61,235 nucleotides of DNA, filler included, from Stramenopiles sp. TOSAG23-3 (GCA_900128585.1; 6 parts of 6 records of this genome joined end to end with filler, not necessarily neighbours in it); one strand, 5' to 3'; positions 18,388 to 59,636 are shown, numbered from the whole stretch's first letter. Notes: generated by a model from the sequence alone, not told the origin. Made by a program: numbers and translations.

Positions 18388-18487
18388 NNNNNNNNNNNNN
18401 NNNNNNNNNNNNNNNNNNNNNNNNNNNNNNNTTAATTAATTAANNNNNNNNNNNNNNNNNNNNNNNNNNNNNNNNNNNNNNNNNNNN
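18388..18487. other. Artificial scaffold linker (N-TTAATTAATTAA-N)
   Basis: Stop-in-all-frames spacer within Ns. The same linker recurs at 36821-36920, 55243-55342, 57241-57340 and 59239-59338. Confidence 0.97.
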
Positions 18488-18488
18488 G

Positions 18489-19850
18489 GATTACAAGGAA
18501 GGGGAGGAGGTATTCATTAGTTACGGGATTATGACCAACCCTGACTTGCTGATCACCTACGGGTTCGCCTTGGCTGACAATGCGTATGAGACTGTTGGAT
18601 TTGGCCTGGGCATGGAACAAGCAATGGCGAGCGAGATAGGAAAGCTGGACGAACTGCTTCCTGGAAAACTGAAATTTTTGGAACGTAAAACAATTGACCC
18701 AGCATTGCAAACTCACATAGCCCTTGACGGCCGCCCGTCTGGGCGATTTCTTCAGGCAATGCGGGTGAAAGAGCTGACCATGAGAGACGTGCTGCCCGAC
18801 GATGCGTCGTGTGCTAAACCGAGTGCCACTGCGGTTCCGCCTGGAATGGCGGGGGTGCCAGGAGCAGGTGGTAGGCCGCCCCCACCAGGCTTCCACCCGC
18901 AACCGGGAGCTGTCCCGGGCGCCCCGCCAGCACCGGGGGCCGGGCAACCAAACTTGCAAATGGACGCGATGATCCAGGAAGCAATCCAAGGCGCGCTATC
19001 GGGAATGGGAATGGGCGGTAAAGCGCCTCCAGGGGGCGCTGTGCCCGACGTGAGCGCACTTGTCCAAGAGGCGTTGAAAGGTTTAAATCTTCCCGGGATG
19101 GGGGGGCAGGGGCAGGGGGAACCTTTGAAACCAAAGAGTGGTTTGAGCGACGAAGAGAAGAAGCGAATCGCGAAGGTCGAGAAAGCCGTTTTGGAGGTGA
19201 AGCCTCTCAAGCCCATTAGTAGCGACAACGAACTGTCGGTCCACTCGGCGCTCATGTATGGGGCGGAGCGACTCTTGGGGCAATACCCGACATCACTAGC
19301 GCAAGATCTGTCCTATTTTTCCCCCGAATCGCCGCACAAGCCAAATATGATTCAAAGGCAAGCCCTGATTATGCGCATTGAAATCAAGCGCATTCTGCAC
19401 GCATGCATTTTGGAATCAATGAAGGGCATGAAAGCAGCGTTTCAAATGCAAGTGGGTGAGCGCGACTACGATGTTGCAGACGAAATTACGGAGGGCATGC
19501 ATGAGCTGGAGGTGAAACGCATCACAATACATAAGCAAATGTTAAAACATTTCGAGGACGGTAATGCGAAATGGGATGCCCAGTGGGAGAAGTGGAGGGA
19601 GGATGTCCGGTTAGCGTGGGGGGAAGAATCGGCGTTGCCAAAGAATTCCGACCTGCTGTCGCACATGGGCAGCAGCGAAGAGATTCTAAGGCAAGCAAGG
19701 CAGCAATTTGAGTCGATTGATGACAATACTGATGGAATCAGAATTGGCGATTTTTTGAAGTTTACCGACATTGTTGAGGACTTGGTCAAGGAAGAAATGA
19801 CAAAGGAAGCGATGAGCGCAGAGGAGCAGGGCCTTCCCGTTTCGATGTAG
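18489..19850 (+). CDS. SET-domain lysine methyltransferase (SETD3/Rubisco-LSMT-like), 5'-truncated at scaffold start
   Basis: DYKEGEEVFISYGIMTNPDLLITYGF is the SET C-terminal motif; LLGQYPTSLAQDL resembles the LSMT substrate-binding domain. Confidence 0.85.
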   Translation, partial: DYKEGEEVFISYGIMTNPDLLITYGFALADNAYETVGFGLGMEQAMASEIGKLDELLPGKLKFLERKTIDPALQTHIALDGRPSGRFLQAMRVKELTMRDVLPDDASCAKPSATAVPPGMAGVPGAGGRPPPPGFHPQPGAVPGAPPAPGAGQPNLQMDAMIQEAIQGALSGMGMGGKAPPGGAVPDVSALVQEALKGLNLPGMGGQGQGEPLKPKSGLSDEEKKRIAKVEKAVLEVKPLKPISSDNELSVHSALMYGAERLLGQYPTSLAQDLSYFSPESPHKPNMIQRQALIMRIEIKRILHACILESMKGMKAAFQMQVGERDYDVADEITEGMHELEVKRITIHKQMLKHFEDGNAKWDAQWEKWREDVRLAWGEESALPKNSDLLSHMGSSEEILRQARQQFESIDDNTDGIRIGDFLKFTDIVEDLVKEEMTKEAMSAEEQGLPVSM

Positions 19851-20468
19851 AGATTTTAATCGCGTTTTGCCCCACCGCATTTTTGTTTGACACAGACGGA
19901 TTAACATGTGCGTGGTCGTCTCTGCTTAAAAAACAAAAATATAAAGAGTTCAGTATTAAGTAATTAAAATTAATGTACTGCGAACTGAAATCTAGATTTG
20001 GACATTCTAGGTTTGCATTCCTTCATGAACTGCGAACTTATCTTTGCTCTTTTGGTTTTACTAATCGGTATACCCTTGTCACTTAGTCTTGACTATACTA
20101 TATATTTTGTTTTTTTTTCATTCTCAGATGTACTCCATTCATAATCTGAACGTTGTTCTTTTGAACGTTGTTCTTTTTTTTTTTTTTTTTCCTTTTCTCA
20201 ATTTCTCGTTTCTCTATTTGCTCAGCTTTTCGTTTCTCTTTTTTTTCAGTTTCGCGTTTCTCTGCCTCTTCCTCACTCCACATTTCATGGGGCAAAATTG
20301 TAAGAGTACTAGTACTAGAAATGGATATATTTATAAAAATGGAAGGAAATAAATAAAAAACAAAAAATTGGCTTTTTTTTACTAGAGACACTAATAAGTA
20401 ATAATAAAATATATGTGCAGAGAAAAAAAATACTATCTTTTACTACACTACAACCGGTAAAACCAAAT

Positions 20469-21824
20469 TCACAGAAGGGCAGGGTTGAGTTTTTCATCAG
20501 GGTCTTGTTGCGATATCAACGTATTGGGTGTTCCTTCTGCGGGAGCGTTGGTCTTCTCCTCTTCGTTCCCAACGACTTCTTCAATTCGATCTGTGCTGTA
20601 ATTGTTGGTGTAAACCCACAAAAAAAGGCACACCGCAGAGGAAAACAACCCCAGCATCCCAGGCGCTCCAGGGCCTAACCTCCAAACGACTGTGGAGAGA
20701 AGGGAACCGGCAACAGCACCGAGCGCACCCGCCCCGAAAAGTATACTTTCCAGGACTCCATTTAATCGAGACGGGTTGTTTTCTTCCTCCCCTCTTCGTT
20801 TCGCCAATACTATATTTCCCACCAAGCCCAAGTTTGCCACGACGAGCATTTCAAACTGGAAAAAACAAAAAAACACTGCGACCAATCCCAATGCCAAGCC
20901 CATATTTGGTTGCCATGCAACCATTAGAAAAACGAATGCGATTATATAACCAACAAAACCAAAGACCAAAAATTTGCGGCCTGCGTAATGCTTGAGCACT
21001 TTAATCAGGGTGATTTCCGCGAGTAAATCGGCAGCACCGATGGTTAATGACGCAGCCCCAATTCCCGCAGCATCAAACCCATGCACTTCTGTAAGCCATA
21101 AACCAAAAGAAACAAAAACCACGTACATCGAAGACATGAGCAGAACCGACGTTAGGAAGACTGCAATTGCTAACGGTGTGTGGCAAACTTGCTTTGCCAC
21201 CGCACACAACATAGAAAAGTTGAACTTCGTCTTCTCTTTATTTTCATCGCCTTTGCTCTGAACGACATGCTTCAGGATGCGCCATCCAACTGCAGCAAGA
21301 ATGAAGCATATTATCCCTAGGATAACAAACGGAATTTTGAAATCTGTACTCATAAGAAAACCTACAGCGGGAACTCCAATTATCGACGACAGCCCCCATG
21401 AAATCTCTACCTTTGCAACCACTTTTCCTTGTTCCTCCTTTTCGCAGATAGAGTTTGCAGTCGCCAGAATGGTGGGCCACAAAAGTCCTTTTGCAACGCC
21501 AAAGAGCACAATAGAAACTGCGATTTGAATGAAGGTCCCAGAGAAGGCGACTAGTTCTAACAAAATTCCTTGGCCTGCAAGGCAAACCACGCTCATGTTT
21601 CGCAAACCAAAAAATTGCTGCGCCGACGGGGCAAGTGCACAGACAAATACGTTCACAAATTGGAACGATGCCAGGAGCGCCGTTATCTGGCTAACATCTA
21701 CATCCAGGTGCAGCGCAATCACCGGTGCGAGCGGATACATGGCCCTGTAACCGGTGGCCACAATAAATTTTGTCGCCAACAACCAAGTCGGCACATGCTT
21801 AAACTTTTCCAGCAGTGGGCTCAT
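20469..21824 (-). CDS. Major facilitator superfamily transporter
   Basis: 451 aa with about 12 hydrophobic segments in two halves; MFS-like spacing. Confidence 0.88.
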   Translation of the reverse strand: MSPLLEKFKHVPTWLLATKFIVATGYRAMYPLAPVIALHLDVDVSQITALLASFQFVNVFVCALAPSAQQFFGLRNMSVVCLAGQGILLELVAFSGTFIQIAVSIVLFGVAKGLLWPTILATANSICEKEEQGKVVAKVEISWGLSSIIGVPAVGFLMSTDFKIPFVILGIICFILAAVGWRILKHVVQSKGDENKEKTKFNFSMLCAVAKQVCHTPLAIAVFLTSVLLMSSMYVVFVSFGLWLTEVHGFDAAGIGAASLTIGAADLLAEITLIKVLKHYAGRKFLVFGFVGYIIAFVFLMVAWQPNMGLALGLVAVFFCFFQFEMLVVANLGLVGNIVLAKRRGEEENNPSRLNGVLESILFGAGALGAVAGSLLSTVVWRLGPGAPGMLGLFSSAVCLFLWVYTNNYSTDRIEEVVGNEEEKTNAPAEGTPNTLISQQDPDEKLNPALL

Positions 21825-22551
21825 TCTTCTTCTCCTATGCCCTCCTCAAAAAATGTAGACAAAACCCGAACATTGAATTCTATATATACTCAATTTTAAA
21901 ATTATTCCTCGGAGATGAATATTACAGAGATTCCACTGAATTATGCGAATGTATCGATAACAATTTTCTGTTCAATCTGATACAAAAATGGTCTGAATTA
22001 TTATCATCGTTTCGTGAGTTGAAGCAGGAATCCGGCGGGGGGGAATGAATTTAAACATAATTATAATAATACCAAGTAATGAAAAAAGAAGAAATTACCG
22101 CCGCCGCCGTAGTACCAAGTAGTATTATTATATTTTTTTTTTTATAAATTTTTTTTCTTTCTTCTTCTCTTCTTCTTCTTCTTCTTCTTTTCTTTCTTCT
22201 TCTTCGTGCGTAGAAGAACAACAACAAACAAAAAAATGTTCTTTCTTCTTTCTTCTCTCTTTTCTTCGTCGTTGCTTTTTTTGTTTGTTGTTGTTTGTTA
22301 TATACGACTAATATATGTTGTTGACCTGTTGACCTGAATCCTGAATACCAAGGTATTATAATAAAGAACTGATGAAGAAGTGATGATCTGAAAATAAAAA
22401 ATTATATGATGCTGTGTTCTGTATTTTAATATACTTCTGTGCGTGTTACACCCGCACGTCAACGTACGAACGTTCTGAATAATATCAACGGGCGGCTAAA
22501 CCAAAGTAAATTAAGAAATAATGTTTCGCTACAACAAAACAATTTAACAAA

Positions 22552-24309
22552 TTATGCAAGGTCGCTTAAATCAAGGGGTTCGTCCACCAGATCGCCCCCA
22601 AGGTCAAGGGGTTCGTCCAAGTCGATCGCTTCGTCTTCATCCGATTCCGTGAACCGTTCCGGCTCCCCGCCGTACTGAATGCCGCCTCCTCCGCCGTTTC
22701 CAGACGGGGGTACGGGCTGATAGGTCTGTGGGGGAGTTTGCGGCAAGCCTGCACCATACCCCCCACCACCAGCAGCAGCGACTTGGGGAAGGGAAATTTG
22801 CATTCTTTGGCACCTCCTCCTACTGCAAAAATACTCCATCATTTGTTTCATACCATCACCAGTCATGGGCACGCCTGCTTCCATGGCCTGCCTGGCAAAG
22901 TTTTCGACCGCATCTGCAGGATCCTGGTGCGGCCGGACCGTGAGCCTCCCCACACCCTCAATTTCCAGAGATATCGGTTCGCCCCCGGCAGCAGCAGTAG
23001 CAGCCCCCGCTGGCATCGAAAGCCCCATCCGTTCGCACTTCCGCCTACTGCAGAAATACTGCATCATTTGCTTCATTGCATCCCCCGTCATGGGGACGCC
23101 CGCTTCCAGCGCCTGCCTAGTGAACTCTTCGACCACATCGGCGGGGTCTTGGTTCGGGTTTACAGTAACCTGGCCGACCCCCTCAATGTTCATGGTTACT
23201 GGTTGGGCAACCTGAGGCATGGCGATTTGCATCCTTGCACACGGCCGCCGGGAGCAGAAGTACTGCATCATCTGCTTCATCCCTTCCCCCGAAATAGGAA
23301 AACCGGCCTTGATCGCCTGCGCGGCGAACGCCTCGACAACATCTGCTGGGTCCTGGCGCGGCCCACACATAACGCTCCCCACCCCATCAACTTTTAGCTT
23401 AAGGGGTGGTGGAAGCGTCGGTACCTGGATTTGCATCCGACGGCAGGGGCGCTTGGAGCAGAAATACTCCATCATTTGCTTCATCCCCTCCCCCCCCATC
23501 TCCACACCAGCCTGGAGTGCTTGCGTCGCGAACGCTTCGATCACGTCCGCGGGGTCTTGGAGGGGGGCGACAGTGACAGAGCCTACCCCGGTGACGTTCA
23601 AGGTCATTGCATCGGGGAGCTTTGGAACGTTCAACTCTTTGCGAATGCAACGCCTTCGGCTGCAAAAGTATTCCATCATTTGCTTCATCCCTTCCCCGTC
23701 CATTTCGATTCCAGCGGTGATCGCCTGGTTCGCGAAATTTTCGACAGCGTCTGCTGGGTCTTGCCACGGGTTGACCGTCAGGGCACCGATGTCCTGCAGC
23801 TCGAGCCTAATCGGCGGGGCAATGTTCCGAAGGCAAGGAACACGTTCGCAGAAGTACTGGATCATCTGGTTCATCGACTGGCTGTCAACGGGGACTTGCG
23901 ACGCGGAGAGGCGCTGGGAAAATTCTTCTACCAGGCTCGCGGGTTCCCGCCACGGGGGGCACCGAAGCTTCCCGACGTCCATCGCCAGCTCTACCGTTTG
24001 GTTGAGCAGAGGCTTCTTGCACGCGCGCCGTGTGCAAAAGTAACTGTAGAACGTCTCCATGTTCTCCGTGTTCATCGGCACTCCGATCTCTGCCGCTTGG
24101 CGAGAAAAGGCAAGGACTACGTCGGCCGGTTCTTGGTTTGGTCTGCACACGACGCTACCAACTCCTTCCACTTTGAGCTCAATGTCCCCGGTTTCCTGCG
24201 GAGGGGACGGTGCGCTCGCAGCCTCTCCATCACCACTATCTGCTTGCGCATTTGCAATGCCCAGCAGAGCTAGGGCGAGCAGGGCAACCTTGAACGGACG
24301 GGTCACCAT
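22552..24309 (-). CDS. Secreted protein with seven tandem ~65-75 aa Cys-containing repeats
   Basis: Signal peptide; repeat consensus GVG.VTV.P.QDPADVVE.F..QA..AG..M.GEGMKQMM.YFCSRR.C. Confidence 0.9.
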   Translation of the reverse strand: MVTRPFKVALLALALLGIANAQADSGDGEAASAPSPPQETGDIELKVEGVGSVVCRPNQEPADVVLAFSRQAAEIGVPMNTENMETFYSYFCTRRACKKPLLNQTVELAMDVGKLRCPPWREPASLVEEFSQRLSASQVPVDSQSMNQMIQYFCERVPCLRNIAPPIRLELQDIGALTVNPWQDPADAVENFANQAITAGIEMDGEGMKQMMEYFCSRRRCIRKELNVPKLPDAMTLNVTGVGSVTVAPLQDPADVIEAFATQALQAGVEMGGEGMKQMMEYFCSKRPCRRMQIQVPTLPPPLKLKVDGVGSVMCGPRQDPADVVEAFAAQAIKAGFPISGEGMKQMMQYFCSRRPCARMQIAMPQVAQPVTMNIEGVGQVTVNPNQDPADVVEEFTRQALEAGVPMTGDAMKQMMQYFCSRRKCERMGLSMPAGAATAAAGGEPISLEIEGVGRLTVRPHQDPADAVENFARQAMEAGVPMTGDGMKQMMEYFCSRRRCQRMQISLPQVAAAGGGGYGAGLPQTPPQTYQPVPPSGNGGGGGIQYGGEPERFTESDEDEAIDLDEPLDLGGDLVDEPLDLSDLA

Positions 24310-25438
24310 GATTGAATACTATTTGTTTCGTTCCAACGCCGTCTTCCTCGGTGTACGGCTCACGACACTGTGCACAGCACTACCACACTTTCTTCTTCTT
24401 CGTGCACTAACTAAACGAACAAACGAACGAAACAAGACGAACCAATGGAAAATTATTAAATTTCACGTGAGAAATAAGTATTGATGCAAAAGCAAAAACG
24501 TGCATTATCATTGTATTCGTTTTTCTGAGAAAAGGGATTTGCCATAGAAGGTAGAAGTGGCGATGTTTCGTTGTTGCCATTGGTTGGCGCGTTGTATTAA
24601 TAAATACCGCGGTGTTATTCTCGTCTATTTCGATTATTATTATTATTATTGAGATCTTAAAATTAAGTGAGAGAGAAGAAGAAGAAGAAGAGGGGAAGAG
24701 AGAAGAGAAGAAGAAGGAAGAAGAAAGAGAAGTAGAAGAAGAAGAAAAGAAGAGATTTCAATTTTTTTTCATTCTTCTTCTATCTTCTTTACGTCCTCGT
24801 CGTCTTTCACATATATAGGAAGAATAGTATATAATTTCTTTATTATAAGTACAATTTAAAGTGGATTCAATCCAATCCCACTCAAATATCATACTAAAAA
24901 TAAAAATAAAAAACGCACGAGGGAGGAGGACTGGAGGATGGACTCTTTCTTTTGCTTATCATAGCTGTACGAGGAGTATTTGTAGAACGAGAATGGAAGT
25001 ATTAAACTGTACTTGTACCGGTATTAATCGTAGTCTTTCTATAGTATAGAATAAAAATAATAAATTAATTAAATTTCTCATTACAACAGTATAGTACTGT
25101 ATAGTTTAAATAGTATTATTATTTTATTTATAGATGATATTGAAAGAAAGAGTATTTATTGGTATTCATTTATAGGGATTAGTATAAATAAGTACATCCA
25201 ATTGGGGATTGATTTGATTGGTTGTTGGAATTTTATTATTTTTTAGTTAGATTAGAGACTCAGACGCTCAGACGACTACTATCTTCTTCTTCCTTCTAAA
25301 TAACAGGAATACAGTATAGTATAAAAAAGAAGAGTTTGATTCAATCTTCTTTTTTTTTTTCTTAGTTATAATATTTTTTGGATCTTTTCTTTCATTAGTG
25401 TTAGAATTAAGGTAATTGTATTTAGAGGAGAGTCTACC

Positions 25439-26848
25439 CTACCCCTTCAGGAGCACGGACAGGGATCCTGTTTTCCCGTCCTTGCTGGTACTTTGGATAC
25501 CCTTCACAATGTCGACGTAAGTCATCAGGTCTCCCCGTCCCTTCTTAATTTCGACGTAAAACATCGATGGCGACTCCCCCATGCGTTGAATGGAAATGGA
25601 AATCTTGACCGCGCCGCGGCCTCCCAAGAACGTAGCTACAATGTAATAGTCAACGGTCGAAGCGAAGGTAACTTGATGGGAGATATCCTGGCCGACGCTC
25701 CGGCACTTGGCCTCGATGTCTCTCTTCACCGTCGCCAGGGGCTTCCCGGTGAGGTAGACGGTTGTCCGCTTCACGTGCATCTTGTGCTCTTTGGACATAA
25801 AGATACGGTTGAGGCCGGTGTGCGTCAAGTTGGAGACGATATCGAAGATCGTCAAGTCCGCCAGGACGCCCTTGTGGTCGACTGCGTCGCTGCCGTCCTC
25901 GTCGAAGTTCTCGCTTTCCCCCGTGCTACTCAGCGCTTTCACGGCCAGCTTGAGGTCGTAATCGCTCGGGCTGATATTCTGGGCCGTGGCCTTCCCATCT
26001 CCATCGACAGTGCCTCCGGTCGCGTCCATGCCCTTCAGCCAGGCGTGCTTCAGGGCCTCATCGAGCGATATGCGCTTCTTCGGATCGGCTTGAAGCAATT
26101 TTTCGATCAGGTCCTTCGCGTCCCCGACCACCCAGGTCGGGTACTCGAAGTCGGCCTTCGCGATGCGTTTGAAGAGGAGCGACATGGTCGGCTCGTCGAA
26201 GGGGAGGTAGCCCGCGAGCAGGACGAACAAAATGACGCCGCAGGACCACGTGTCCGCCGCTTTGCCATCGTAGCCCTTGTCGGCCAGCACCTCCGGGGCG
26301 ACGTAGTTCGGCGTCCCACACGTGGTGTGCAGCAACTCCTTCATCCCCCCCTCGAGCTCATCCGCCCCGGCAAGGTTCATCGCCGATAGGCCAAAATCGG
26401 AAATCTTCAAGATCCCGTTCGAGTCCAGGAGCAGATTCTCCGGCTTAAGGTCGCGGTGGGCCACCCCTTGCCCGTGACAGTACAGGACACCGCTGCACAA
26501 CTGGTGAAAGTACTTTCTGGACCGCTCCTCGGAAAACCTACCGGCTTCTACAATTTCATCGAACAGCTCCCCACCAGTGACCAACTCCAACACAATAAAT
26601 ATTTTCGAACGGCTGGCCAACACCTCCACCAAGTTGACCACGTTCGGGTGGTTCACCAGCTTCATGATCGAGATCTCTTTCTTTATTTGGGACCCCATGT
26701 TTTGCTGCTGCAACTTCACCTTGGACAAAACTTTCACAGCAACTTTATTCCCCGTCTCTACATCGGTCCCTAACTGGACTTTTCCAAAGGTCCCCTCCCC
26801 CAACACTTTCCCGAGCTCATACTTTCCGACGGTCTTACTTTTCGGCAT
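25439..26848 (-). CDS. CIPK/SnRK3-like Ser/Thr protein kinase (CAMK group)
   Basis: [19 protein letters not shown] and [17 protein letters not shown] motifs; C-terminal LTIFDIVS resembles a divergent NAF/FISL motif. Confidence 0.93.
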
Positions 26849-27859
26849 TCTCGGTGCGTTCGAGTGGTGCTCTGCAACAACGTAACGCGTAAGAAGAAGA
26901 AGGAGAGCAAAACCACGTTCGTGCGTTCCTTTTATATGTTAACTGTTTCAATACAAAAAGGACGATAAAACATGTGCTTCGAATGGAATCGAAATGAATT
27001 CATTTGTGCATATGAAGTAGAAGACATTAAAACAAAATTATTATTACTACTGTAATAATTATTATTTGGATTGAAGAAGAAGAAGAAGAAGAAAGAAAGA
27101 GAAAGAAGAATAAAAAACGAAGGAGGAAGAAAAAAGAAGACAGAAGAAGAAGAAGAAAAAAAAGAAGGAAGAGGAAGAAGAAGAGAAGAAGACCAGACTC
27201 TCGAGGGAACAATGTGACATATTAAGTATAATAGTTGTAATCTATGGTCATATATATCCTATGTATAACATATTAAATACTACACAGTATATAAAAAATG
27301 AACCTCCATCTCTCTACCACATTGATCGATCTTCTGATGAACTAACTTTTTAACTCCTCGATCTTCCAGTTTAAATTACAACTTATTATAATTATTTTAG
27401 ATTGTACTCTAAGTAAGCCCCTAATAATTTTAAGATAGTAGTCTTCTCTACGTAGAAGATAGATTCTATACTGAATGCTATTCGATGTTACTAAAACTGT
27501 GACTTTACTACTTTTTTCAGTTAGTTCAATATTTTATTTAGATCGACCTGTGGAGAAAGAACACTATTAAATGAATACGAATAGTACTAATAATAACCTG
27601 TGGAGGGAAGGAGGGAGGGAGGGAGAAGAGGAGAACCGACCCTGTCTGTGGTGGAGACGGGGGACCGACCGACCTCTTCTGTTCCTAAGTGGTCCTGTGG
27701 TGGAGCGACCACCAATACGATAATTAAATAATAATAAAGAGACAGGTAAAAGACAATGAGCGAATAATTTAAAAATTATTATTTAGACTAGTTATCCTCT
27801 ATCTATCCAACTAATCCCCTCCTACTACTATAATAATAATACTACAATGGAAGTCGTTC

Positions 27860-27938
27860 TATGATGTCACATATAGAGATACCTCCCCTTCCTTTCATTT
27901 CTGATTCTATTCTCATTCTATTTAATTCTACAGCCCTT
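27860..27938 (+). repeat. 79-bp sequence identical to the reverse complement of 36742-36820
   Basis: Direct base-by-base comparison; both copies end at N gaps. Confidence 0.9.
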
Positions 27939-27975
27939 NNNNNNNNNNNNNNNNNNNNNNNNNNNNNNNNNNNNN

Positions 27976-28050
<75 letters not shown>
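27976..28050. repeat. (TTTC)n microsatellite
   Basis: Tandem TTTC at a contig edge. Confidence 0.95.
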
Positions 28051-28503
28051 AAATATAAATTGATACTGTAAGATATTCTTCTTTTCCTTCTTCATTTCTT
28101 CTTCTTCATCGATCTGTTTCTCTTGTTTTGTTTGTTGTGGTACGTTGAGTTGTTGTTGTTAAATAAAAAATAATAAAAAAAAGAGAGAAATAAATATATT
28201 AATATTATTATTATAAATAAAAATAATAATAGAAGAAAGCGAGAAAGAAGATTACTAAAAAAATAATCATTCAAGTTTACTACAGAGGAGATGGAGAAAA
28301 CGAATATGTGTTTTATAGAGAAAGTAACGAAAAGAAAGAAGAGAACGAAAACAAAACCAAAATAAAAATTAAGATTCTTAAGACACCAACCAGACCATTG
28401 CTGTGTATATTTTTCCTCCAGTCAATTATAAAAAAGAAGAACTAGACTCGGTTGCCTTGCCTGCCTGCCTGCCTCCCTTCCACTCCAAAAGTTTATAGGC
28501 AAC

Positions 28504-30762
28504 ATGACGACTATGCTTAGTGGGGCCAAGATATCCACTGCGGTGCACAAAGCGACGGACGACTCCATGCAACCAGTACCAGGGTACATGTTTCAGGAAA
28601 TCATCAACACAACCCATGCGAATCCGTCCAGCTGCGACGCCTTCGAAAGGGTCATTTTTGCCCGTTTGAGGAAGAGCCAGCCAAATATCAAGTGGAAGTG
28701 CCTTATGGTGATAAAGCACGTCACCCCGAAAGCGAACCAGAGCTTCAAAAGGTGCATGCAGGACCACGTCGGCGACATAAAGGCCTGCCTGCAGTTCCGC
28801 GGCCCGCCGCACCCGACGTACGGGGATTCGCTATACAAACGGGTCCGCGAAGAAGCGAAGAGCGCGCTAGAGTCGATATTCCAGGACGCCCCGCGGCAGT
28901 CGAACCCCAGGGCCAACCTGCAGGGGCGCATACAGGGCATCGGCGGCGGCTCGGGGGGGTCGAACGGCGCACCGCGCTTTGGAAGCAACATTTCGTCCAA
29001 CGCCCAGGCTGCGCTCGCGGCAAACATGTCGAACGCGTCGACCAGAGGCCACTCGGGTGGCCGTCAAGGAACGTCTAGCATGGGCAACGTAGGGTCTGCG
29101 AACGCCGCGATTGCTTACGGGGGGATGAACGGAAGGAAGATGCAAGGGTTTGGGAACCCAAACTTCAACAACGAGCCCAAGAAGGAGTCCTACTTCGACA
29201 AGATGAAAGAAAAGGCGCTCAACAAGGCGAAGGAGCTGGCCACGGGGCAGAAGGCCCCAGGGCCAAAGTTTGCAAACGGGGGGAACCCGGCGTGGATGAA
29301 CAACGCGACGGGCGCGGCCACGTACAACTACGCGAACAACAGAGGGGCGGGAAGCGCGGCCGTCGGCTCCGGCGGGGGCTACAGCGGCCCCAACCGCCCC
29401 GCGGTTGTGGTGGTAGGGCGCGACGCTTTGAACTCTCCCGGGGGGGCGAGAGGGAGGAGCGCTAGCTTTGAGAGAAAGAAGGGGCAGGTCGGCGGGGTGT
29501 GGGGCAACCAAAGCTCGAACGTTACGTCGTTTGGAACTTCTGGAGCATCGACGACCTCGTTCGACCGCCGCGATAGCGCCCGGTCGGGCAACGCCGGGCT
29601 GGCCTCCAAAGACGGCGTTTACGAGCAGACGTTAGTGGATAGTATTTGTAGCTCTGGTGGCCTCCGCCCGGTCCCTAACGCCAAGGAAGTCGGCGCATTT
29701 GTAAACCGTTGCAAAAATTTGGATGCAACCATAGTTGGAGGGTTGATAGTGGCCAAATTGGACGTAGAAGACTGGAAAGTCAACCTGAAAGCGCTGGTCA
29801 TTATGGAGGCCATGGCGAATGACCCGTCGTTTGCGAAGTATGCCGACTTCTTCTACGACGAGAAGGAGGCGCTCGAAGATTTGTTGGAAGACACGAACCA
29901 AGCGCAGGTTCGCAACCGTTGCAAGAGGGTCTTGAAAGGCCTTGGGGTCGAAGGGTACGAGAATGCGACGGACGATGCAACCAAAAGGAAGAAAGCAGTA
30001 GGACGCGTGCCCATGCCAGTCCAGGCCGTGCAGCCCAATTTACTAGACGTGGGGGCTGGCGCCCCGGCCGCGCCGCAGACCGCACCCGAGGATTTGTTGG
30101 CCGGTTTGACGATGGTAACCCCCGCGGCGCCGGAAGCTGCCGCGCCAGAGGGGGGGACAGGGTTCGATTTTCTCCAAACCCCAGCACCGAAACCGTCCCC
30201 CCAGCCGGCGCCCGCCACGGCAGACTCTGCCTTCAGTTTCCTTGACGCGGCCCCTTCATCCTCCCCGAGCGGTTTGGGGAACGGCATGGACGATTTGCTG
30301 AAACCCATGAGCTCTGCCCCCGCTTCCACGAAGCCCGCAGCCCCCGTAGTCGCTGCGGACCCATTCGCGGATTTAATGGGCGCTTCGCAAAAGCCAGCAA
30401 TCATGGCTGCGGCCGCCCCGACAACGTCCGGCTTCAACTTTTTGAGCAGCACACCGGCCACTGCCGCCCCAAATGCGGCAACCCCAGCCCCGGCGGCCGG
30501 CGGGATGGCCCAAATTCAACAGGCACAGCAAATGTTTCAGATGCAGCAGCATATTAAAATGCAGCAAATGCAGATGATGGCGATGCAGCAGAAAATGCGC
30601 GGGAAACCCATGGCAAACAACAGCATGATGACTGGGGTTCGAGCTGCAGGCTCGGTCAAAACGATGGCACAGGACATGTTCAAGCAGCAGGCAGAGGAAG
30701 ACAAGAAGAAGAAGCAGGCTGCTGCGTTTAGTTTCGTGAACGATGCCTTGAACCAGAGTTAG
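28504..30762 (+). CDS. TEPSIN: Tepsin-like AP-4 accessory protein (ENTH plus VHS-like domains)
   Basis: KATDDSMQPVPGYMFQEI, IKWKCLMVIKH and FRGPPHPTYGDSLYKRVREEAK, plus a second domain YEQTLVDSICSSGGLRPVP, are characteristic of tepsin. Confidence 0.85.
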   Translation: MTTMLSGAKISTAVHKATDDSMQPVPGYMFQEIINTTHANPSSCDAFERVIFARLRKSQPNIKWKCLMVIKHVTPKANQSFKRCMQDHVGDIKACLQFRGPPHPTYGDSLYKRVREEAKSALESIFQDAPRQSNPRANLQGRIQGIGGGSGGSNGAPRFGSNISSNAQAALAANMSNASTRGHSGGRQGTSSMGNVGSANAAIAYGGMNGRKMQGFGNPNFNNEPKKESYFDKMKEKALNKAKELATGQKAPGPKFANGGNPAWMNNATGAATYNYANNRGAGSAAVGSGGGYSGPNRPAVVVVGRDALNSPGGARGRSASFERKKGQVGGVWGNQSSNVTSFGTSGASTTSFDRRDSARSGNAGLASKDGVYEQTLVDSICSSGGLRPVPNAKEVGAFVNRCKNLDATIVGGLIVAKLDVEDWKVNLKALVIMEAMANDPSFAKYADFFYDEKEALEDLLEDTNQAQVRNRCKRVLKGLGVEGYENATDDATKRKKAVGRVPMPVQAVQPNLLDVGAGAPAAPQTAPEDLLAGLTMVTPAAPEAAAPEGGTGFDFLQTPAPKPSPQPAPATADSAFSFLDAAPSSSPSGLGNGMDDLLKPMSSAPASTKPAAPVVAADPFADLMGASQKPAIMAAAAPTTSGFNFLSSTPATAAPNAATPAPAAGGMAQIQQAQQMFQMQQHIKMQQMQMMAMQQKMRGKPMANNSMMTGVRAAGSVKTMAQDMFKQQAEEDKKKKQAAAFSFVNDALNQS

Positions 30763-31010
30763 GCGCGGAAGCCTCCTCCGAAGATTTCACAGAACATAGT
30801 ACACGAAGTACGTAAAATATATTTAAAAAAACAAACTCTACAGTGACCCCCTTGCATAAACGGGCGTAAAATATAAGAGAGAAACCATGCTTGCATCCGC
30901 AATTCTGAAAAGCAAAGGTACGTACGTGGTACGAAAGCGATAAGTTTAGATGTCGTAATGTTATGTACTCGTATGCCTTTTTTTTATGTACACGTGCTCT
31001 CCGCAAGCTC

Positions 31011-31502
31011 TCAGTCTTCGGCCCCTTCCTCCTCTTCGACAAAGTCGTTTATCTCTTCGTAGCACCGGCTGATGCCTGCGTTGAACTGTTTGCTTCTCTT
31101 CTTCTTATACATCCTTTTTGGTTGCCTTCGTCCCATTAATGGTATGGCCCTATTTCTCGCCGTGGCCAAGGCGTTCAGCAGCCCCTTCCTATCCCTTGGC
31201 TGTGCGTTCAGTTTCAGCAACTGAAGCTTCAAGCTTTCTTTGTTATTCGTGTGCGCCGCCATTTCTCTCGGGTCTGGCAAGACTATATTTGTCGTAGTGA
31301 GTACTCGGTCCGCCATGACTTGGAAAGAGTTCAAAGCTTCTTTCCAGGAAAGATTCCTCTTCCTGTTCTGCGTATCAATACATTTGTGCAGCCGTTTCGT
31401 TTGGTCTTCAACTTGTCGAAGGACATCCTTTGCCAACTCGTTCCGAGGCATTCTGAGTTGAAGGCACCGCTCCCCCCTTTTCAATAATGAAACAGCGCTC
31501 AA
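31011..31502 (-). CDS. Small hypothetical basic protein (first ATG gives MPRNELAK…)
   Basis: 163-codon ORF with coding-like composition; no recognised domain. Confidence 0.5.
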   Translation of the reverse strand: MSAVSLLKRGERCLQLRMPRNELAKDVLRQVEDQTKRLHKCIDTQNRKRNLSWKEALNSFQVMADRVLTTTNIVLPDPREMAAHTNNKESLKLQLLKLNAQPRDRKGLLNALATARNRAIPLMGRRQPKRMYKKKRSKQFNAGISRCYEEINDFVEEEEGAED

Positions 31503-32026
31503 GAAAGATAGCTAGCTCTGGAATATTGTGGTACCTAAATGTCACACAGAATAATTCGTTTTTTTATTTTTGTTAATTCCAAATATGAATTAACAAATGC
31601 ACATAAATATTGATGGGTTTAAATGTTACATGACTTCCCTTACTTTACTTTCACGTCACAATTACGAGTGTAAATGTGGTGTGTAGTATGTGTGGTGGGG
31701 TCGACAACGAACAACCACTTAGAGGTTAGAGGAGGAGGAGACTTGTTTTCTGCAGGTCCGTACGTACGTACGTACTAATTATATATTGTCACTTTATAAA
31801 AACTAAACCAATATTATTATTATGATAAATAATAAATATTATTATTACTCCTCTTCTCTCTCTATAATAATTGTAAATTTTTATTTGTTTCTCTCTTCTT
31901 CTCTCTTCTTCAGTTGTTGTCTGTGTTATTTTTTATAATAATATATTTTATTTATTATTTTTTTTGATAACGCACGGCGGTAATGTACGAGCTCGAAGTA
32001 TTTATTTTATAATTGGTATCTTGATT

Positions 32027-34034
32027 TCACGAAAAGGAATATGGTGCGACATTACTCGTCATTCGACTCCAGCCAATTAAAATCCCACTGACTTTCTCGT
32101 TTGACAGCAATAATCGCACGGCTTGTAGAACGCTTCCGAAGTATCGAACTACGTTCCAATGCATGTGTTTGTCGTGTGCCATGAAAATGGGATGGAGATC
32201 GTCCGGGATATGCTCGCCTAAAAACTTTATGAACGCGATCGTTTCTACTTGAGTGTACGGTTGAAAAAATTCAGTAACATCACCAAACCTAACGGTTAGC
32301 TTAGACCGCTTTCTACTGAGACCTTTCGACATTTGGTAGTCCCCACTTGCCCCATGAGAGTACCGTTCGTATGCGCGCATTGAGCATGCCCTGCAGGCCC
32401 CTACGCCAATCTGGCACTGAGACTTTATGTGAGGGCAGAGGAAGGTTAAGAGGGTTCTTTGTGAGGTGCGCCGAAGAATTGACATCAAATCGTCGTGGTC
32501 TTTAACGGGGGAACTGTTCGGAACCTGTTCACAGCTGGCTCTGTTGGACAAGGTCGACGACACGTTGTCCAGCAGAAGCAGCCCACGGACGAGGGTCTCG
32601 TTCAATACGACTTTGCTAGATTTGTCCCATTTATCGACGGCTTGTTTGTACTCTGGGGATGTGTCTACGCTCCGGACGTGAACAAAGGCAGTCCTTCCAT
32701 GGCGTTGCTTCACCAACAGCTCGATGTAGTCGCCGAACTCGACCAACGGGGCTGAAATTACTTGGGGCTCCGCATATTTGCCTATCACCTCCGACCTGTG
32801 CCGATGCTCTTTGGGGTGAAACCCCATGGTTTCGGTATTATTCATTCTGCAGACTATGTATATGCTCGAGGTGCAGACGTATAAGTCATCGTCATTGTCT
32901 TTCATCGACCAGAGCAGGTTCAACACAGAAACTGTTTCTGCAACCAGCAGAGGAAACTCATGGCGCCCTGCTCTTCCAGATACGTTGTGAACAATGGCAT
33001 CGAAATCGTTCTTGTCGAGGCGCTTTGCAGGTAGCTGAGGGTTCCACATCTGCAGCCGCATTCTGTCTTTGCCCGATCTCTTGCCCATGCCACTTTTCTG
33101 CTCGTCATCTTTCTGGCACTTTATCAGTGCACCCCTAAAACGATTCCATGTCCACAGCTGTCCGGTATCGATGTCAACATCGTGGAACTGGATCTCTTTG
33201 CTACTTCTTGGCACGGGGGGGGTAGGGTTCCAATCACGCCACCTGTTTAGTGCTTTATAATTTTTCTTTGGGGACACTTGTCGTTCTTGCATGCTCACAA
33301 TCACATTCGCCCACTCTCGCCCTTCGCGTACGACCCCACTTTCTATGCGCCACTCTTTGCGAAGAGTCGGGCGTTCTGGCGGGACTGAGGGAACCATCTT
33401 TAGCGGGTGGGTCGGATTATCTTTCCCAGCGGGTTGTTCAACAGGAACTTCGTTGAAATTTTCATTGGACGACGGGTCCTCACTGTAGGGGGACGCAATC
33501 TGGTCTACTACTTGTTTGGCTTTTAGAACAACCGACGACCTTCTTGCCACATGATTGTAAGAATGCTTCTCCCTTTCCCCTCGAATTTTCCTGGCACTCT
33601 TTTTTTCTTCGTTTTTGTCGGCCATGTTGCGACTCAACATAATCATGCTTTGGATTCTATCCCAATGCTTTGAGTGAACGCTTCCATCGTCTAACAGCGA
33701 AGTCTTGGGCAACGGCGACTTCGGCGTCCCTATACTCTTCGGGGTGTCGACCGTGCTCAAATCATCTAACGTCAGTGATTTTTCGTTGCCGCTGCTTGTC
33801 AGGCTGTTCATTTTTGGCGTAGACATACCTACCGATTGGAACAAGGAAGATGTCAATTTTGGTTTTTCGGCCAAGTGAATATTCAGGGATTTCGCAAGGG
33901 CAATCACGCTACTCATACCACCAGTTACAAACGAATCCCTCAAGCAATCAATTTCTATTTCGTACTGAATATTCTGTTCATCAATAAATTTGTTGAACTC
34001 ATCCATGTTGATCGATTTATCAGAAGCGGCCATT
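32027..34034 (-). CDS. Hypothetical protein
   Basis: Long ORF (681 codons from TTG 34072; first ATG 34034); no recognised domain. Confidence 0.75.
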
Positions 34035-34317
34035 GCCTCGTATCGCACCGGTAAACAACGGCGACTAAACAAATGAAACGAATGAGATGCCCGTTTATCT
34101 ACGACAGCTTTTCCTGGAGCTTTAAAAATATTTAGTGCATTAATTAATATCGTTTTCTTTCCTTCGTTCGTCTAAATATTTTAATTGGTTTGATTCTCTA
34201 TCTTATAGATCATTTTCTTCAGATGCTGCTAAAAATAAAGAAGGAAGAAAAAAAGAAGAGAAAGAAGAAAGAAGAAGAAACGATTTTCTCTTATTATTAT
34301 TTTGGTTGATTTCTCTT

Positions 34318-34396
34318 CCGGTACCAGGTATTACCGGTACCTGGTAATACCAGGTACAGGTACCAGGTACAGGTACGGTACCTGTACCGTACTACA
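34318..34396. repeat. GGTACC/CAGGTAC-rich quasi-palindromic simple repeat
   Basis: Repeated ggtac/gtacc units; a similar tract lies at 41240-41315. Confidence 0.7.
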
Positions 34397-34617
34397 GGAG
34401 GAAGGAAGCAGAGAAAGACGTCGAAGTTTAAATTAAAAAAAGGACGGATATGAACACAGGAACAAAGAATGAGGGTGATTTTTAACTAATACAGGGAATT
34501 AGCAGAGAAGAATTGTGTTTTTCTTTATTTCACAAAAAAATGTTTTATTTTATTTTCACTGTCACTTAAATGACAGCCAATTTTCTTTTGTATTACAAGT
34601 ACAAAAATACATTGAAT

Positions 34618-36019
34618 TTAAACCCCATGCCATGCTCCAAACCGCACAAAATCTCCGTGGCCTTTGCTGCATTCAAAATCAAAAAATTTTGCTTTGTATC
34701 GTTTCGCCTTTGGGTCCAACTCCTTCCATTTGGCTATCAAAAGGTCAAGTTTTACATCACCAAATTGCAATCCCGATTTCTTTCCCGTTTCTGGCGGAAA
34801 ACAGACGACCAGGAGGGTTGCTTTTGAGCCTAATTGGAACAGGAAAGGCAGCGGGCGATCGGTTGCCCCTCCGTCTTTCGTCATTTTTCTGCAAAAACTG
34901 GCAACGTCGTAGAATTTGGGCACCCGTGCTACGACAGCATCGCAGTGGTCCCTTACTGCTTCGCAAAGATCAGCAAGTGGCATTGAACCGAGTGGCAGAT
35001 CATTTTCAACGGACACTCCACTTTTTTCAACGTTTGCGTTGCAATAATTAGTGGTGTAATTTGTGCCTCCCTGTTATTTGGGCGCGCGGGGGGGGGGGTG
35101 GTTGGTTAGAAGAATCTCAATGTGGCGCTGGGAGAAAAGACAAAGAGAGAGGAGGAAAGGCGGGTAAAACTTACCCATGGCGGATCAAAGAAAATAATAT
35201 TTTGACGCGGCAGTGCTTTGTACAGATTGCAAAAGTCTCCACTGTTAATTTTTGAGGGGAAATGATGGTTGGTTAGGAATCGTCCATGTGGCGCGGTGAG
35301 AAAGAGAAGGCAGGAAAGACAGACAAAACTTACCAGTGCACGCTTACATTGTGGAAGCCGCACACAGTCTCGACATTGTGCTTTAAATAAGAAGCTCGGA
35401 CAGAGTCAATTTCGATTGCATTAACATGATGGAACAGCTTTGCAAAGGCGAGTGTGTTCCCCCCCACGCACGCGCACGCGTCGGTAATTCCAATGGAAAA
35501 TTGTGCATCTTTTTGGCTCCGTTTTTGCGCCCCTCCAACTCGACACAAAACACTCAACAACTCGTTGATTTCTTCTGCTGTATTCATATCGGTGACGGAA
35601 AAGAGAGCCACGCTATCTAACTTGAGTTTTTTTCGCTTGCTGTACGGGAGATTTTGAAACAGCGTGTCCCGCTTCCCAGATGGTCTCGATACCTGTAGGA
35701 TGTTCCCATCGATTTCAACTTTAAGGTTCACGTCTTCAATGGCTTTGTCTGCCATGTCGACGTTGACGTACGCGTACCCAAGGCACTGGTTCAACGAGTT
35801 GAACGCCACTTTGATCTTGCATCTTTTCGAGCTGTACTTTCGAAATATTTGCGCCAATTTTCTTTTGATACCCCTGCCATTGCGAGGCAATCCTGAAACG
35901 AACAAACGGGCTGCCCTGGCTGTACGCTTTCGCAACTCCCGAAGTTTCTCTCGCCTGGTCCACAGCGCCCATGTTAACGCAGCGGCAGCAGAGGGCAAAA
36001 GGAATGCCAGGGGATTCAT
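34618..36019 (-). CDS. Tgs-like RNA cap guanine-N2 methyltransferase with N-terminal hydrophobic segment and RRM; 3 exons (36019-35334, 35241-35175, 35070-34618)
   Basis: RRM motifs LFVSGLP and LGYAYVNV; SAM motif ITDACACVGGNTLAFA…AIEID. Splicing two GTAAGT…CTAAC…AACAG introns rebuilds HCGDF…IFFDPPWGGTNY in frame. Confidence 0.88.
35071..35174 (-). other. Spliceosomal intron 2 of the Tgs-like gene (104 nt)
   Basis: GTAAGT donor, CTAAC branch point, TAACAG acceptor; removal restores the DPPWGG motif. Confidence 0.9.
35242..35333 (-). other. Spliceosomal intron 1 of the Tgs-like gene (92 nt)
   Basis: GTAAGT donor, CTAAC branch point, TAACAG acceptor; removal restores the frame. Confidence 0.88.
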
Positions 36020-36741
36020 TCCAAAGGGCTATTTTCGTTATTCAAAAAAAATCTCGTTCCAAAATACAAATAATCATAGGCTTTCCCCTCCCTTGTCAGA
36101 AATCTTTCAGCGTTAATCTGTACTTTCTTCTTCAAATGTTTAAAATCAATATTCGTTTTCACGCACTATTTTTAAAAGGACATGGAAAAAAATTATTACA
36201 CAGCCGCCAGCCAGGTACGAGGAGTTCTCGTACCAGAGCGGGAACACAGGATGTGGTTGGACTCATAAATAAAATAAATATCTTACTCCTATTCATTCAC
36301 GTATAATAATTACGAGGACGTAAGGAAGTAGGTAATATAATAATTTTTAAAATCTCGTGCTGCATATTTAATTATAAAATAAGTAGTAGGACTATAGCTA
36401 AATAATATACAAAAATAAAAATAAAATAATTTCCTCCTTCCTTCGTCGTTCTTCTTAAAGTTCTTGCTTGGTGACTTGCTTAATTATTTTTTTATAAGAT
36501 TTTTTATATTAGACCAACTAACTACTGGTATTATACCTTGGTAGTCCTTATATGGAGGAGGTGTTGTACTCCTCGTACGGCGTTGTACGGTGTTGTTTTT
36601 ATTTTGTTAGAATTAGTATTAGAAAGACTTTATATTATTATTATTAAGGAGTATATTTTTTTTTAGGTGGAGAGCTTATCTATCCTGCATCAATCATCAC
36701 GAATATCATCCTTCCCGTAAAAAAATATGAAGAAGAAGAAG

Positions 36742-36820
36742 AAGGGCTGTAGAATTAAATAGAATGAGAATAGAATCAGAAATGAAAGGAAGGGGAGGTA
36801 TCTCTATATGTGACATCATA
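36742..36820 (-). repeat. Inverted copy of 27860-27938 at scaffold end
   Basis: Exact reverse complement, 79 bp. Confidence 0.9.
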
Positions 36821-36920
36821 NNNNNNNNNNNNNNNNNNNNNNNNNNNNNNNNNNNNNNNNNNNNTTAATTAATTAANNNNNNNNNNNNNNNNNNNNNNNN
36901 NNNNNNNNNNNNNNNNNNNN

Positions 36921-36994
<74 letters not shown>
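36921..36994. repeat. (TTTC)n microsatellite
   Basis: Tandem TTTC at a scaffold start. Confidence 0.95.
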
Positions 36995-37431: not shown

Positions 37432-38328
37432 ATGGCAACTTCCACGATGCAGTTGAAACTATTGACCAAGGTCCAGAGCAGGTACATTCGCAACAAGTAA
37501 GTACGCCTCCCCCTCTCTTCCCCCCACCCCTTATCAAACAAGCACTAACCCTTGCTTCTCCACAACAGCAAAAAGAACGGGCAGAAAAACATTCGGTGCT
37601 TTCCTCGGTGCGTCCCGGGGGGGCACCGTATGGCTGGCTTTTGTGGCTCGAACGTCCTGGTGTCCGCGAAATTCCCCGAACCCCCGGCCGCCCCCGCAGA
37701 CGGTGACGAGGACAGCATCGTAAAGATCGCGGAGCAGCAAGGCGCCGCGCTTGAGGAAGAGAAAAGCAGTTCCGAGCCGTCGACGGGAAAGAAGCAAGCC
37801 AGCGAAAGCGAGGACGAACTGCCGTCCTTGCACAACACCATAGTCATGTCAGAATTTCTCGTCGCGAACGACCCCAACAAGGAGGGTCCCGGCCCCGTAC
37901 GAATCCAGATCAAACTAGGGAGCTACTACGATAGCAAACCGATCATGGACCTGCTGAAGCTTGCGATCAGGCAGTCGTTCAGCAACCCCGGGGAAAGACC
38001 ATGCCCTCAACCATTTTTGGCCCGACTAGAGGGCGGCGCGGAAAAGGCCCGCCAAGCGGACGGGTCGTACATCTTCAACGTCCAGCCCAAATGCTGGCAC
38101 TACGGGTGGAAGTCGCACAAGCATGCGAACTGTACAAACCATTTTTTGCGAGTTTACGCGTTTCAGAAAGTCGGCAACGCCTTCAAGTGCGTTGCAATGG
38201 ACGACTCTGAGTTTTTTACCGTCTCCAGCAGCAAACGGTTTCGCCGCGATTGCAACATGACCGGGAGGGAGGACATCTCAGGCGCCCCCATCGTGAAGCG
38301 AATGAAAGGCAAAAGCCAGACCCCGTAG
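37432..38328 (+). CDS. Hypothetical protein, 2 exons (37432-37496, 37569-38328)
   Basis: A 72-nt intron GTAAGT…CACTAAC…ACAG links ATG 37432 in frame to give YIRNNKKNGQKNIRCFPRC…GFCG. Confidence 0.8.
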
Positions 38329-55242: not shown

Positions 55243-55342
55243 NNNNNNNNNNNNNNNNNNNNNNNNNNNNNNNNNNNNNNNNNNNNTTAATTAATTAANN
55301 NNNNNNNNNNNNNNNNNNNNNNNNNNNNNNNNNNNNNNNNNN

Positions 55343-57240: not shown

Positions 57241-58328
57241 NNNNNNNNNNNNNNNNNNNNNNNNNNNNNNNNNNNNNNNNNNNNTTAATTAATTAANNNN
57301 NNNNNNNNNNNNNNNNNNNNNNNNNNNNNNNNNNNNNNNNCCATTTCCAGCCTTGGTGGGCTCGCCACTGCCGTCGTGGGGGCTGCGTTCGACGCTGCCA
57401 GCAGCTGGTGGGGGGGGGGGGGGGGGGGGGGGAAGGCAATGCACGCAAGTCGACGCTAACAGGCAAAATACCTCCGTCCGAATCAATAGATAAACAAGTA
57501 GACGTCTACTCTTTCGTTGATTATTCCAAGTATATAAAAAAAGCGCTGTGAAGCTTCTTCCATGTGTTGCAATAATCCATACAACAAGAAGAAGAGGAGG
57601 TTGTTTGAATAAATACACGGTGGTGGTGTGACAATAATTTAAATTAATTAATAATAAAAAAAAAAAGTGGTGGTTGAATTCAACAATTCTATTAGTCTTC
57701 TATAATAATACTTAAAGGAAGTACTATTTGAATATAACAGTGCAACAACAGGGAAAAAGAAAATAATAAAAAAATATTAAATACTCTGGAAGGAAGAAGG
57801 AAGAAGGAAGGAAGGAAGGAAAAAGAATCCAATCTCTGTGTTCTCAATGCTTTGTTCCCTTTTAAAGTGATTTAAAAAGGGGTTCATGCGTTCATGGTGA
57901 AAAACTAAAATAGTTACCTATCTAACATTACATACAGATATATATTATATACAAACAAACAAGGACAGATAATAATTACAATCTTAAATACAGAAAACAA
58001 TACAGGCACCTTGCATTGCAAGAAAAAAGAAAAAGAAGGAAAAAGGATTTTTTAATAGATAAAGAGTACCCTAACCATAACAGGGACACAATTGGATGTA
58101 CTTTGAAAAAAAAAAAAGGTAAAAACAATTAAACAGGGACACAGGACGATGTATAAGAGATTAAAAAAATAAATTGATTAACCGTGAAAAAAAGTCACTG
58201 GAAATATAGTGAAAACAACCATTAAGGATAGTTGCCCGCTGTGCAATTGACGGACCGTGAAAAAATATCGACCTTAATCCAAGCGTTGGGTGCATTGAAA
58301 TAGTGAAGAAGAAAAACAAAAATTAATG

Positions 58329-58738: not shown

Positions 58739-59636
58739 AACAAAAAACAACAACAACAAAAAATTCAAAAAAAAAGAAAAAATCAATTTATTTTTATCTA
58801 TATAAATACAGCATTACATAACTACAGCATAGATAAAACATAAATAAAATCAAAGAAAAGATATTTTAAATTAAATAGGGAAATATCCTAGTCTAGTTTA
58901 GTACTAAGTAAGGCTTAGGTTTGAGTTTAAGTTGTACTTAACTTAAACATAACACTATAATTGAAAATTATTTTATAAAATTAAATAACGCTTACTTCTT
59001 TGTTTTTTCACTTTCTGTTGCATGCTGTGTAAGTGTATACTTTACAAAAAATGGGAATTTATTTCTTCTTTTTCAATTTTTTATTTTCAATTTTATTATT
59101 AAAATTATTTATTTATTATTATATTTTCAATACTATTATTTTTCAACGATACTAAATTCTTCTTCATCCTTATTAATATTATAGCAGAGGAGGGTTCCTT
59201 TTCCCTATGCTATGTCAATATATTTCAATATAGAATTTNNNNNNNNNNNNNNNNNNNNNNNNNNNNNNNNNNNNNNNNNNNNTTAATTAATTAANNNNNN
59301 NNNNNNNNNNNNNNNNNNNNNNNNNNNNNNNNNNNNNNTTGACTTCTTCTTCGTTCGTCGCGAAGAAAGAAGGAAAATATATTAAGAATATTTTGTTGGG
59401 ATTCGCGTTGTATTTTATTGATTGTTGTGCACGGAGAGGCAGAAGAAAGAAGAGCGCTACAAATTCAAAGTATATATGGGGTTTACGGACTGTCCACGAA
59501 GAAAATTGCAAAGGCCCTAGAAGTATCTACACCCTTTGCGTCTTGATCAGACACAAACATTTCATCATTTGTGCACGCGCGCATTATTTCCTCCCCTATC
59601 TCTTTCTGTCCCCCTCCCACACACACTCCCACCAGC

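Follow-up and report, generated by a model that had tools for sequence, protein, structure and literature searches.

Duplication of an intron within a single gene has been described before but is rare. Among fungal introns, 82 were classed as same-gene duplications, that is, as similar or near-identical introns duplicated within one gene, with only a few of them in each genome (Collemare et al., 2013; PMC3609843). Intron transposition, in which the new intron shares homology with one already present and brings along its own donor, branch site and acceptor while the coding sequence stays unchanged, is described for Mycosphaerella and Oikopleura (PMC3443670; PMC4122922). A review counted 14 unambiguous events of this kind from these two genera, with reverse splicing inferred and no in vivo demonstration (Yenerall and Zhou, 2012; PMC3443670). 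Introner families were defined as at least four similar introns left after the removal of similarity between related proteins, and were found in 39 of 230 aquatic vs. 35 of 1367 non-aquatic species; many of the families carry target-site duplications or terminal inverted repeats (Gozashti et al., 2022; PMC9860276). The introner-like elements (ILEs) of Dothideomycetes are described as multiplying as introns without transposon hallmarks, as having stable predicted secondary structures and hundreds of copies, and as degenerating into ordinary introns over time (PMC3609843).

In this study, two sequence-related introns in a single gene of Stramenopiles sp. TOSAG23-3 were analyzed, and their likeness would be explained somewhat better than evenly by a same-gene duplication that was exact to the intron borders. 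Like the fungal cases, the pair consists of similar introns within one gene; in contrast to them, the host is an uncultured protist, the copies have already diverged by 17%, and the closest relatives of the host gene include giant-virus genes. The pair is placed in the same-gene class provisionally, the alternative being a low- or high-copy family. As in Mycosphaerella and Oikopleura, one intron is homologous to another, has its own splice signals and leaves the coding sequence unchanged; an RNA intermediate and a reverse transcriptase are here only proposed. Whole-intron similarity, a protist host and absence from the homologues seen are features shared with the introners of Micromonas, Aureococcus and the families of Gozashti et al., but the present pair amounts to two copies in one gene, with neither inverted repeats nor a clear target duplication. 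The pair likewise resembles the Dothideomycete ILEs in its lack of transposon hallmarks. Among the literature matches listed, none reported introners for uncultured stramenopile single-cell genomes, and a printed report may nevertheless exist.

The window and the host gene

The window, that is, the whole stretch of 61 kb (61,235 nt) that was analyzed, consists of six contigs joined by N44-TTAATTAATTAA-N44 spacers, so the gene neighbourhood across the spacer points is artificial. The gene carrying the intron pair lies on contig 18488-36820, and a third intron, used as a control, is found on the next one; since the window is made of joined contigs, the two genes are on different contigs. The coordinates of the features are collected in Table 1. 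A (TCTT)n microsatellite occurs at 27976-28050, directly past a gap at 27939-27975, and another at about 36921-36990, at the start of the contig beginning at 36921.

Table 1. Positions of the gene parts, shared repeat blocks, control intron and contig spacers, counted from the first letter of the window.
Feature	Position	Strand	Description
Exon 1	35334..36019	-	686 nt; ATG 36019-36017
Intron 1	35242..35333	-	92 nt, phase 2; GTAAGT...CTAACCAACCA...TTAACAG
Exon 2	35175..35241	-	67 nt; encodes (C)GDFCNLYKALPRQNIIFFDPPW
Intron 2	35071..35174	-	104 nt, phase 0; GTAAGT...CTAACCAACCA...ATAACAG; C-rich/GC tail
Exon 3	34618..35070	-	450 nt (35070..34621) and stop codon 34620-34618
Repeat block D1, intron 1 5′ end	35298..35334; partner 35139-35175	-	37 nt, 78%, spacing 159
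Repeat block D2, holds GCGCCACAT	35283..35303; partner 35117-35137	-	21 nt, 86%, spacing 166
Repeat block D4, CTAACCAACCA, putative branch site	35266..35276; partner 35099-35109	-	11 nt, 100%, spacing 167
Control intron	37497..37568	+	72 nt, phase 2; gene on next contig
Contig spacers	18388-18487, 36821-36920, 55243-55342, 57241-57340, 59239-59338		N44-TTAATTAATTAA-N44

The host gene is read from the minus strand as three exons separated by two introns. The exon 1 product comprises a hydrophobic N-terminus, a weak RRM-like stretch and the beginning of a Tgs1-type methyltransferase domain. Its residues 178-218 matched the Pfam family PF09445 (Methyltransf_15), the RNA cap guanine-N2 methyltransferase (Tgs1) family, with an E-value of 2.7e-6 and 27.5 bits (cutoff 22); the human TGS1 chains 3egi/3gdh matched the same residues weakly (E 0.03), and the RRM chains of HuD and SRSF10 matched the exon 1 product at E-values of only 0.16-0.45. 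The SAM-binding VGG(N/D)T motif and the DPPWGG motif both aligned with homologues of the host protein, and exon 2 aligned with their G(D/N)...D(I/V)(I/V)(Y/F)(L/I)DPPW stretch. With the PF09445 match and both motifs present, the gene belongs to the Tgs1-type RNA cap guanine-N2 methyltransferases. Compared with its viral relatives, the protist protein has about 170 additional N-terminal residues, which include the hydrophobic start and the weak RRM-like stretch, a 12-residue insert right behind DPPWGG, and a C-terminal tail with no Pfam match.

Frame and homology support two spliceosomal introns

Both intervening segments carry a GTAAGT donor, a CTAAC motif and an AACAG acceptor, with the putative branch A of CTAAC lying 31 and 35 nt from the 3′ end, respectively. 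Joining the three exons yields a coding sequence of 1206 nt (401 codons) with no internal stop, and the spliced product was collinear through both junctions with all seven database homologues in an unbroken alignment. Splicing restores the G(D/N) position past intron 1 and the DPPWGG motif across intron 2. As had been predicted from the sequence, intron 2 interrupts this motif, in phase 0 between W and GG; the motif is uninterrupted in six of the seven homologues, and the seventh has DPPW, a gap and then EN. When the spliced protein was searched against giant-virus loci (L011-L089) by tblastn, all 79 were matched in one segment (residues 116-310) that crosses both junctions, the best at 37.8% identity over 217 aa (E 9e-33). 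Judged by frame and homology, both segments appear to be genuine U2-type GT-AG spliceosomal introns.

No spliced or intron-less form of the protein was found in the protein database with exon-1 queries (127-406 aa) and exon-3 queries (82-263 aa). The matches were unspliced ORFs of the same organism, one C-terminal fragment of 76% identity, and distant homologues; P0009 is the window's own exon-3 ORF, and P0010 and P0028 are 76%-identical partial relatives, P0028 coming from a 26-kb contig. Among the sequencing runs that share sampled words, 14 reached at least 0.64, none of them recorded as RNA, and six RNA runs lay at 0.20-0.31.

In the exon-1 protein cluster, five of the six members terminate in ...VSVHW and a stop codon, as expected from reading into intron 1; these forms are the public gene model P0013 (188 aa, source name g8018.t1) and four ORF variants. 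Since P0013 (locus at 34618-36041, minus strand), which also has a doubtful N-terminal exon, reads into intron 1 and stops at its donor, the public annotation misses exons 2 and 3, the half of the enzyme that holds the catalytic DPPWGG. The halt of this model at intron 1 would also fit a reading in which the segments are not introns and belong to a broken pseudogene or an assembly artefact. Such a reading is very improbable, given that both segments carry GTAAGT, CTAAC and AG, that excising exactly these two restores the frame together with a motif that is contiguous in most homologues and spanned by unbroken viral tblastn segments, and that 26 contigs (2+18+2+4) and one gene model are on record with ORFs of exon 1 that stop at the donor of intron 1.

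A second near-consensus donor, GTAAGC, is present at 35342-35347 (minus strand), 14 nt upstream of the donor of intron 1; splicing from it to the intron-2 acceptor would keep the reading frame but remove the catalytic motif. Over 18 nt, the C-rich/GC tail of intron 2 (35079-35096) shows 83% complementarity with a G-rich segment of exon 1 (35459-35476). These two stretches lie 362 nt apart and could pair in the pre-mRNA, although the match may be due to chance.

The two introns are related well beyond their splice signals

The global alignment of intron 1 with intron 2 contained 74 identical positions among 89 aligned (83%), with few and short indels of up to 7 nt. The original prediction of two sequence-related introns in one gene is upheld by this alignment, and its intron coordinates proved exact for the minus strand. 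The predicted extension of the similarity well past the splice signals was also found: after GTAAGT and AACAG were stripped, the score reached z=8.3 over 2000 dinucleotide shuffles, and a second scoring scheme gave 63 of 78 identical interior positions and z=7.6, with no shuffle (0/2000) attaining the observed score under either scheme. With the shuffles confined to 3, 5 or 8 zones, which holds the pyrimidine-rich 5′ half in place, z values were 11.5-13.5. Identity was 59/66 from the 5′ splice site through CTAACCAACCA and 15/23 in the tail. The p-distance between the two introns was 0.169 and the JC distance 0.19, equivalent to differences at 17% of the aligned sites, with indels besides. An independent repeat search returned three collinear direct-repeat blocks common to both introns (Table 1). 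Introns 1 and 2 therefore look alike over their whole length in a way that would make them diverged copies of each other, in which case one probably arose as a copy of the other.

The similarity ends at the intron borders

When the 67-nt exon flanks of the two introns were compared, z values of 0.76 upstream and -0.09 downstream were obtained, and each intron compared with each exon in both orientations gave z values between -1.14 and 1.59 in all 12 tests. Alignment to the homologues revealed no duplicated protein segment between the two junctions. The similarity appears to stop at GT and AG, and the flanking exons appear unrelated. A segmental duplication carrying exon sequence was ruled out by the unrelated flanks and the lack of a duplicated protein segment, and a tandem duplication of an AGGT-containing exon segment was ruled out because the introns resemble no exon of the gene.

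On the minus strand, TGG-like bases precede both introns (35336-35333; 35177-35174), and GGAG stands behind both (35241-35237; 35070-35067), with a 1-nt offset at intron 1. The registers of these flanks are shifted by one base, and an exact target-site duplication was not reconstructed. The flanks could reflect either a proto-splice-site preference or microhomology used in copying.

A control intron shares only the basic signals

The control intron on the neighbouring contig has the predicted junction ...YIRN-N-KKNGQKNIRCFP, and contiguous YIRNNK(K/S)NGQKN was found in 10 of the 15 homologues of its gene; the other five are the gene's own unspliced ORF, one protein with a later Met start and three fragments lacking the N-terminus. 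Compared with each of the Tgs introns, it gave z=-0.49 and -0.53, and a profile built from the two introns did not match it at E<=100 (nhmmer). The claim that the intron at 37497-37568 lacks the similarity is thereby confirmed, with the addition that it is located on a different contig. All three introns share GTAAGT, a pyrimidine-rich 5′ half, CTAACC and AACAG, and the Tgs introns are longer than the control by only 20-32 nt. GCGCCACAT, CAACCA and the other blocks seem confined to the pair, judging by a single control. The concern raised with the original prediction, that the shared motifs might be general to all introns of this species, found no support in this validated control.

The gene of the control intron (37432-38328, plus strand) belongs to a conserved family with no Pfam match, marked by YIRNNKxNGQKNxRCFP and CWHYGWKSHKH...HFLRVYA, for which fifteen relatives were found. 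The position of the control intron is uninterrupted in the ten relatives that reach the N-terminus, one of them on a 76-kb contig.

Shared constraint instead of common descent could in principle produce similar introns, either through extended intron signals or through a common regulatory element; for example, the RRM-like N-terminus of the encoded protein could recognize a binding site and autoregulate splicing of the 67-nt exon. The signals common to all three introns would agree with such a constraint, as would the closer likeness of the region between 5′ splice site and branch than of the tail. Nevertheless, constraint is an improbable explanation, considering that the third intron has none of the pair's further likeness (z about -0.5; no profile match), that a collinear identity of 83% over about 90 nt, inter-motif spacers included, is unlike convergence, and that neither intron has an Rfam match at E<=1 or a fold.

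No further copy is found in an intron-poor window

The window is intron-poor. It holds about two dozen long ORFs, and intron architecture was recognized at 3 of its 26 GT[AG]AGT sites; scans for donors, for branch plus acceptor, and for frame joining brought up no convincing candidate besides the three introns already known. Kinase, DEAD-box helicase, sulfatase, RabGAP-TBC, GH3 C-terminal and other Pfam domains are each contained undivided in one ORF. The intron-poor setting assumed for this genome is borne out as far as the 61 kb window reaches.

A search of the window for a third copy gave none: blastn-short produced only chance words of 10-14 nt, and nhmmer --max recovered the two introns at E 1.9e-26 and 5.3e-22, with the next match at E 1.5. 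The further family members that the prediction looked for did not turn up in the 61 kb, and no similar intron occurs in another of its genes. The pattern GCGCCACAT-N(5-14)-CTAACCAACCA was also scanned in other collections, where it matched three metagenome contigs, six prokaryote genome contigs and one viral contig; these ten matches look like chance because none has GTAAGT upstream or AACAG downstream. As the scanned collections did not return the locus itself, the scan says nothing on family size.

Neither intron contained inverted repeats in the repeat search or an Rfam match at E<=1, and their minimum free energies of -5.4 and -4.8 kcal/mol were no lower than expected from 200 shuffles (z=0.51 and -0.06), that is, no stable fold beyond the shuffles was found. 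A non-coding RNA inside the introns was rejected for want of an Rfam match and of such a fold, and transposon ends were rejected for want of an inverted repeat in either intron. The terminal inverted repeats and/or target-site duplication that mark introners of the DNA-transposon type are missing here, as is the stable secondary structure of the fungal ILEs; against the hundreds of structured copies described for the latter, the present pair folds no better than shuffles.

These findings bear on a further explanation, namely that a dispersed introner family with additional copies elsewhere in the genome gave rise to both introns, by independent insertions or by local hopping. Intron lengths of 92-104 nt fall within the range of introner elements. 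The similarity spans the whole intron and ends at its borders, as in introners, and these are over-represented in aquatic species (PMC9860276). On the other hand, no further copy was seen in 61 kb at E<=1, terminal inverted repeats, a clear target-site duplication and a stable fold are all wanting, and the data at hand do not reach the four-intron threshold given for a family (PMC9860276). Moreover, with three introns recognized in the window, a sparse family would hardly place two of them 67 nt apart by chance, so two independent insertions of a dispersed family at that distance are unlikely. The explanation as a whole is credible but rather unlikely; it is compatible with a local copy.

Homologues and the putative gain of the two introns

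Relatives of the Tgs1-type protein are encoded in 125 viral stretches, and the closest ones include small giant-virus proteins of about 200-250 aa. One database homologue, P0002, is a giant-virus gene and shares 99% identity with the viral contigs that match best. PF09445 is present in the nearest Atlas clusters; the top cluster is 67% viral with a score of 0.95, and eukaryotic Tgs clusters score 0.93.

Both introns are absent from every homologue seen, that is, from the seven database homologues and the giant-virus loci, from which we infer that both intron positions are gains. The preference for gain over ancient introns is not firm, because the intron-less homologues are distant (35-45% identity) and at least some of them are giant-virus genes. 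Giant-virus genes would be without spliceosomal introns anyway. Should the gene have come from a virus, both introns would be post-transfer gains. The original description of a recent gain holds in part: the gain is backed by distant homologues alone, and it can be called recent only in a relative sense, as 17% of the sites differ and indels add to this. From the JC distance of 0.19 between the copies, the relative of 76% identity (P0010/P0028) is predicted to have no more than one of these introns.

An old origin has also been weighed, in which both introns were kept alike by gene conversion between neighbouring copies; they are in direct orientation and only 159-167 nt apart, a distance that permits conversion. 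However, conversion needs prior homology, and a common origin of the two introns would therefore still be required; besides, no conversion tract reaches into the flanking exons, and no homologue seen retains either intron. Long-term conversion is accordingly held to be quite improbable.

Discussion

The evidence inclines us, by a modest degree, to read the pair as a same-gene, intron-exact duplication. The two introns would be paralogous, one copied from the other or both from one source, and the copy would have been inserted whole, exactly from GT to AG, at a distance of 67 nt within the same gene. Between the two origins first offered, an introner family or local copying, the second has gained from the GT-AG borders, the unrelated flanks, the short distance and the absence of another copy in the window, and the first is not borne out within the window, with two copies in one gene and neither inverted repeats nor a stable fold.

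The most likely route for the proposed duplication would be intron transposition, in which the intron, once excised, inserts by reverse splicing at a nearby site of the transcript it came from, and reverse transcription of that RNA yields a cDNA that recombines with the gene; the direction of copying and the RNA intermediate are what we infer here. Alternatively, a templated copy could have been made at the DNA level during break repair. The TGG and GGAG matches at the flanks would also fit such a microhomology-guided copy, and no direct signature of reverse splicing is seen at this locus.

A wider and more speculative idea, which we consider unlikely, is that new introns may mainly come from existing introns that copy themselves through RNA, and that this gene has been caught at the two-copy stage. 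Both introns would then have been gained once the gene had entered or left the viral pool, in a lineage in active intron gain, and the pair would represent a young, low-copy introner free of transposon hallmarks, perhaps with further copies elsewhere. The control intron is also missing from the ten homologues that reach its position, which would fit a lineage actively gaining introns.

The origin of new spliceosomal introns is still debated, and clear-cut examples are few of a new intron that can be seen to copy its neighbour exactly to the intron borders while the exons stay unduplicated. Should the pair be confirmed by comparative and RNA data, it would provide a protist example in a very intron-poor genome, where every intron could easily be catalogued and the parent-daughter relation could be dated against close relatives in marine metagenomes.
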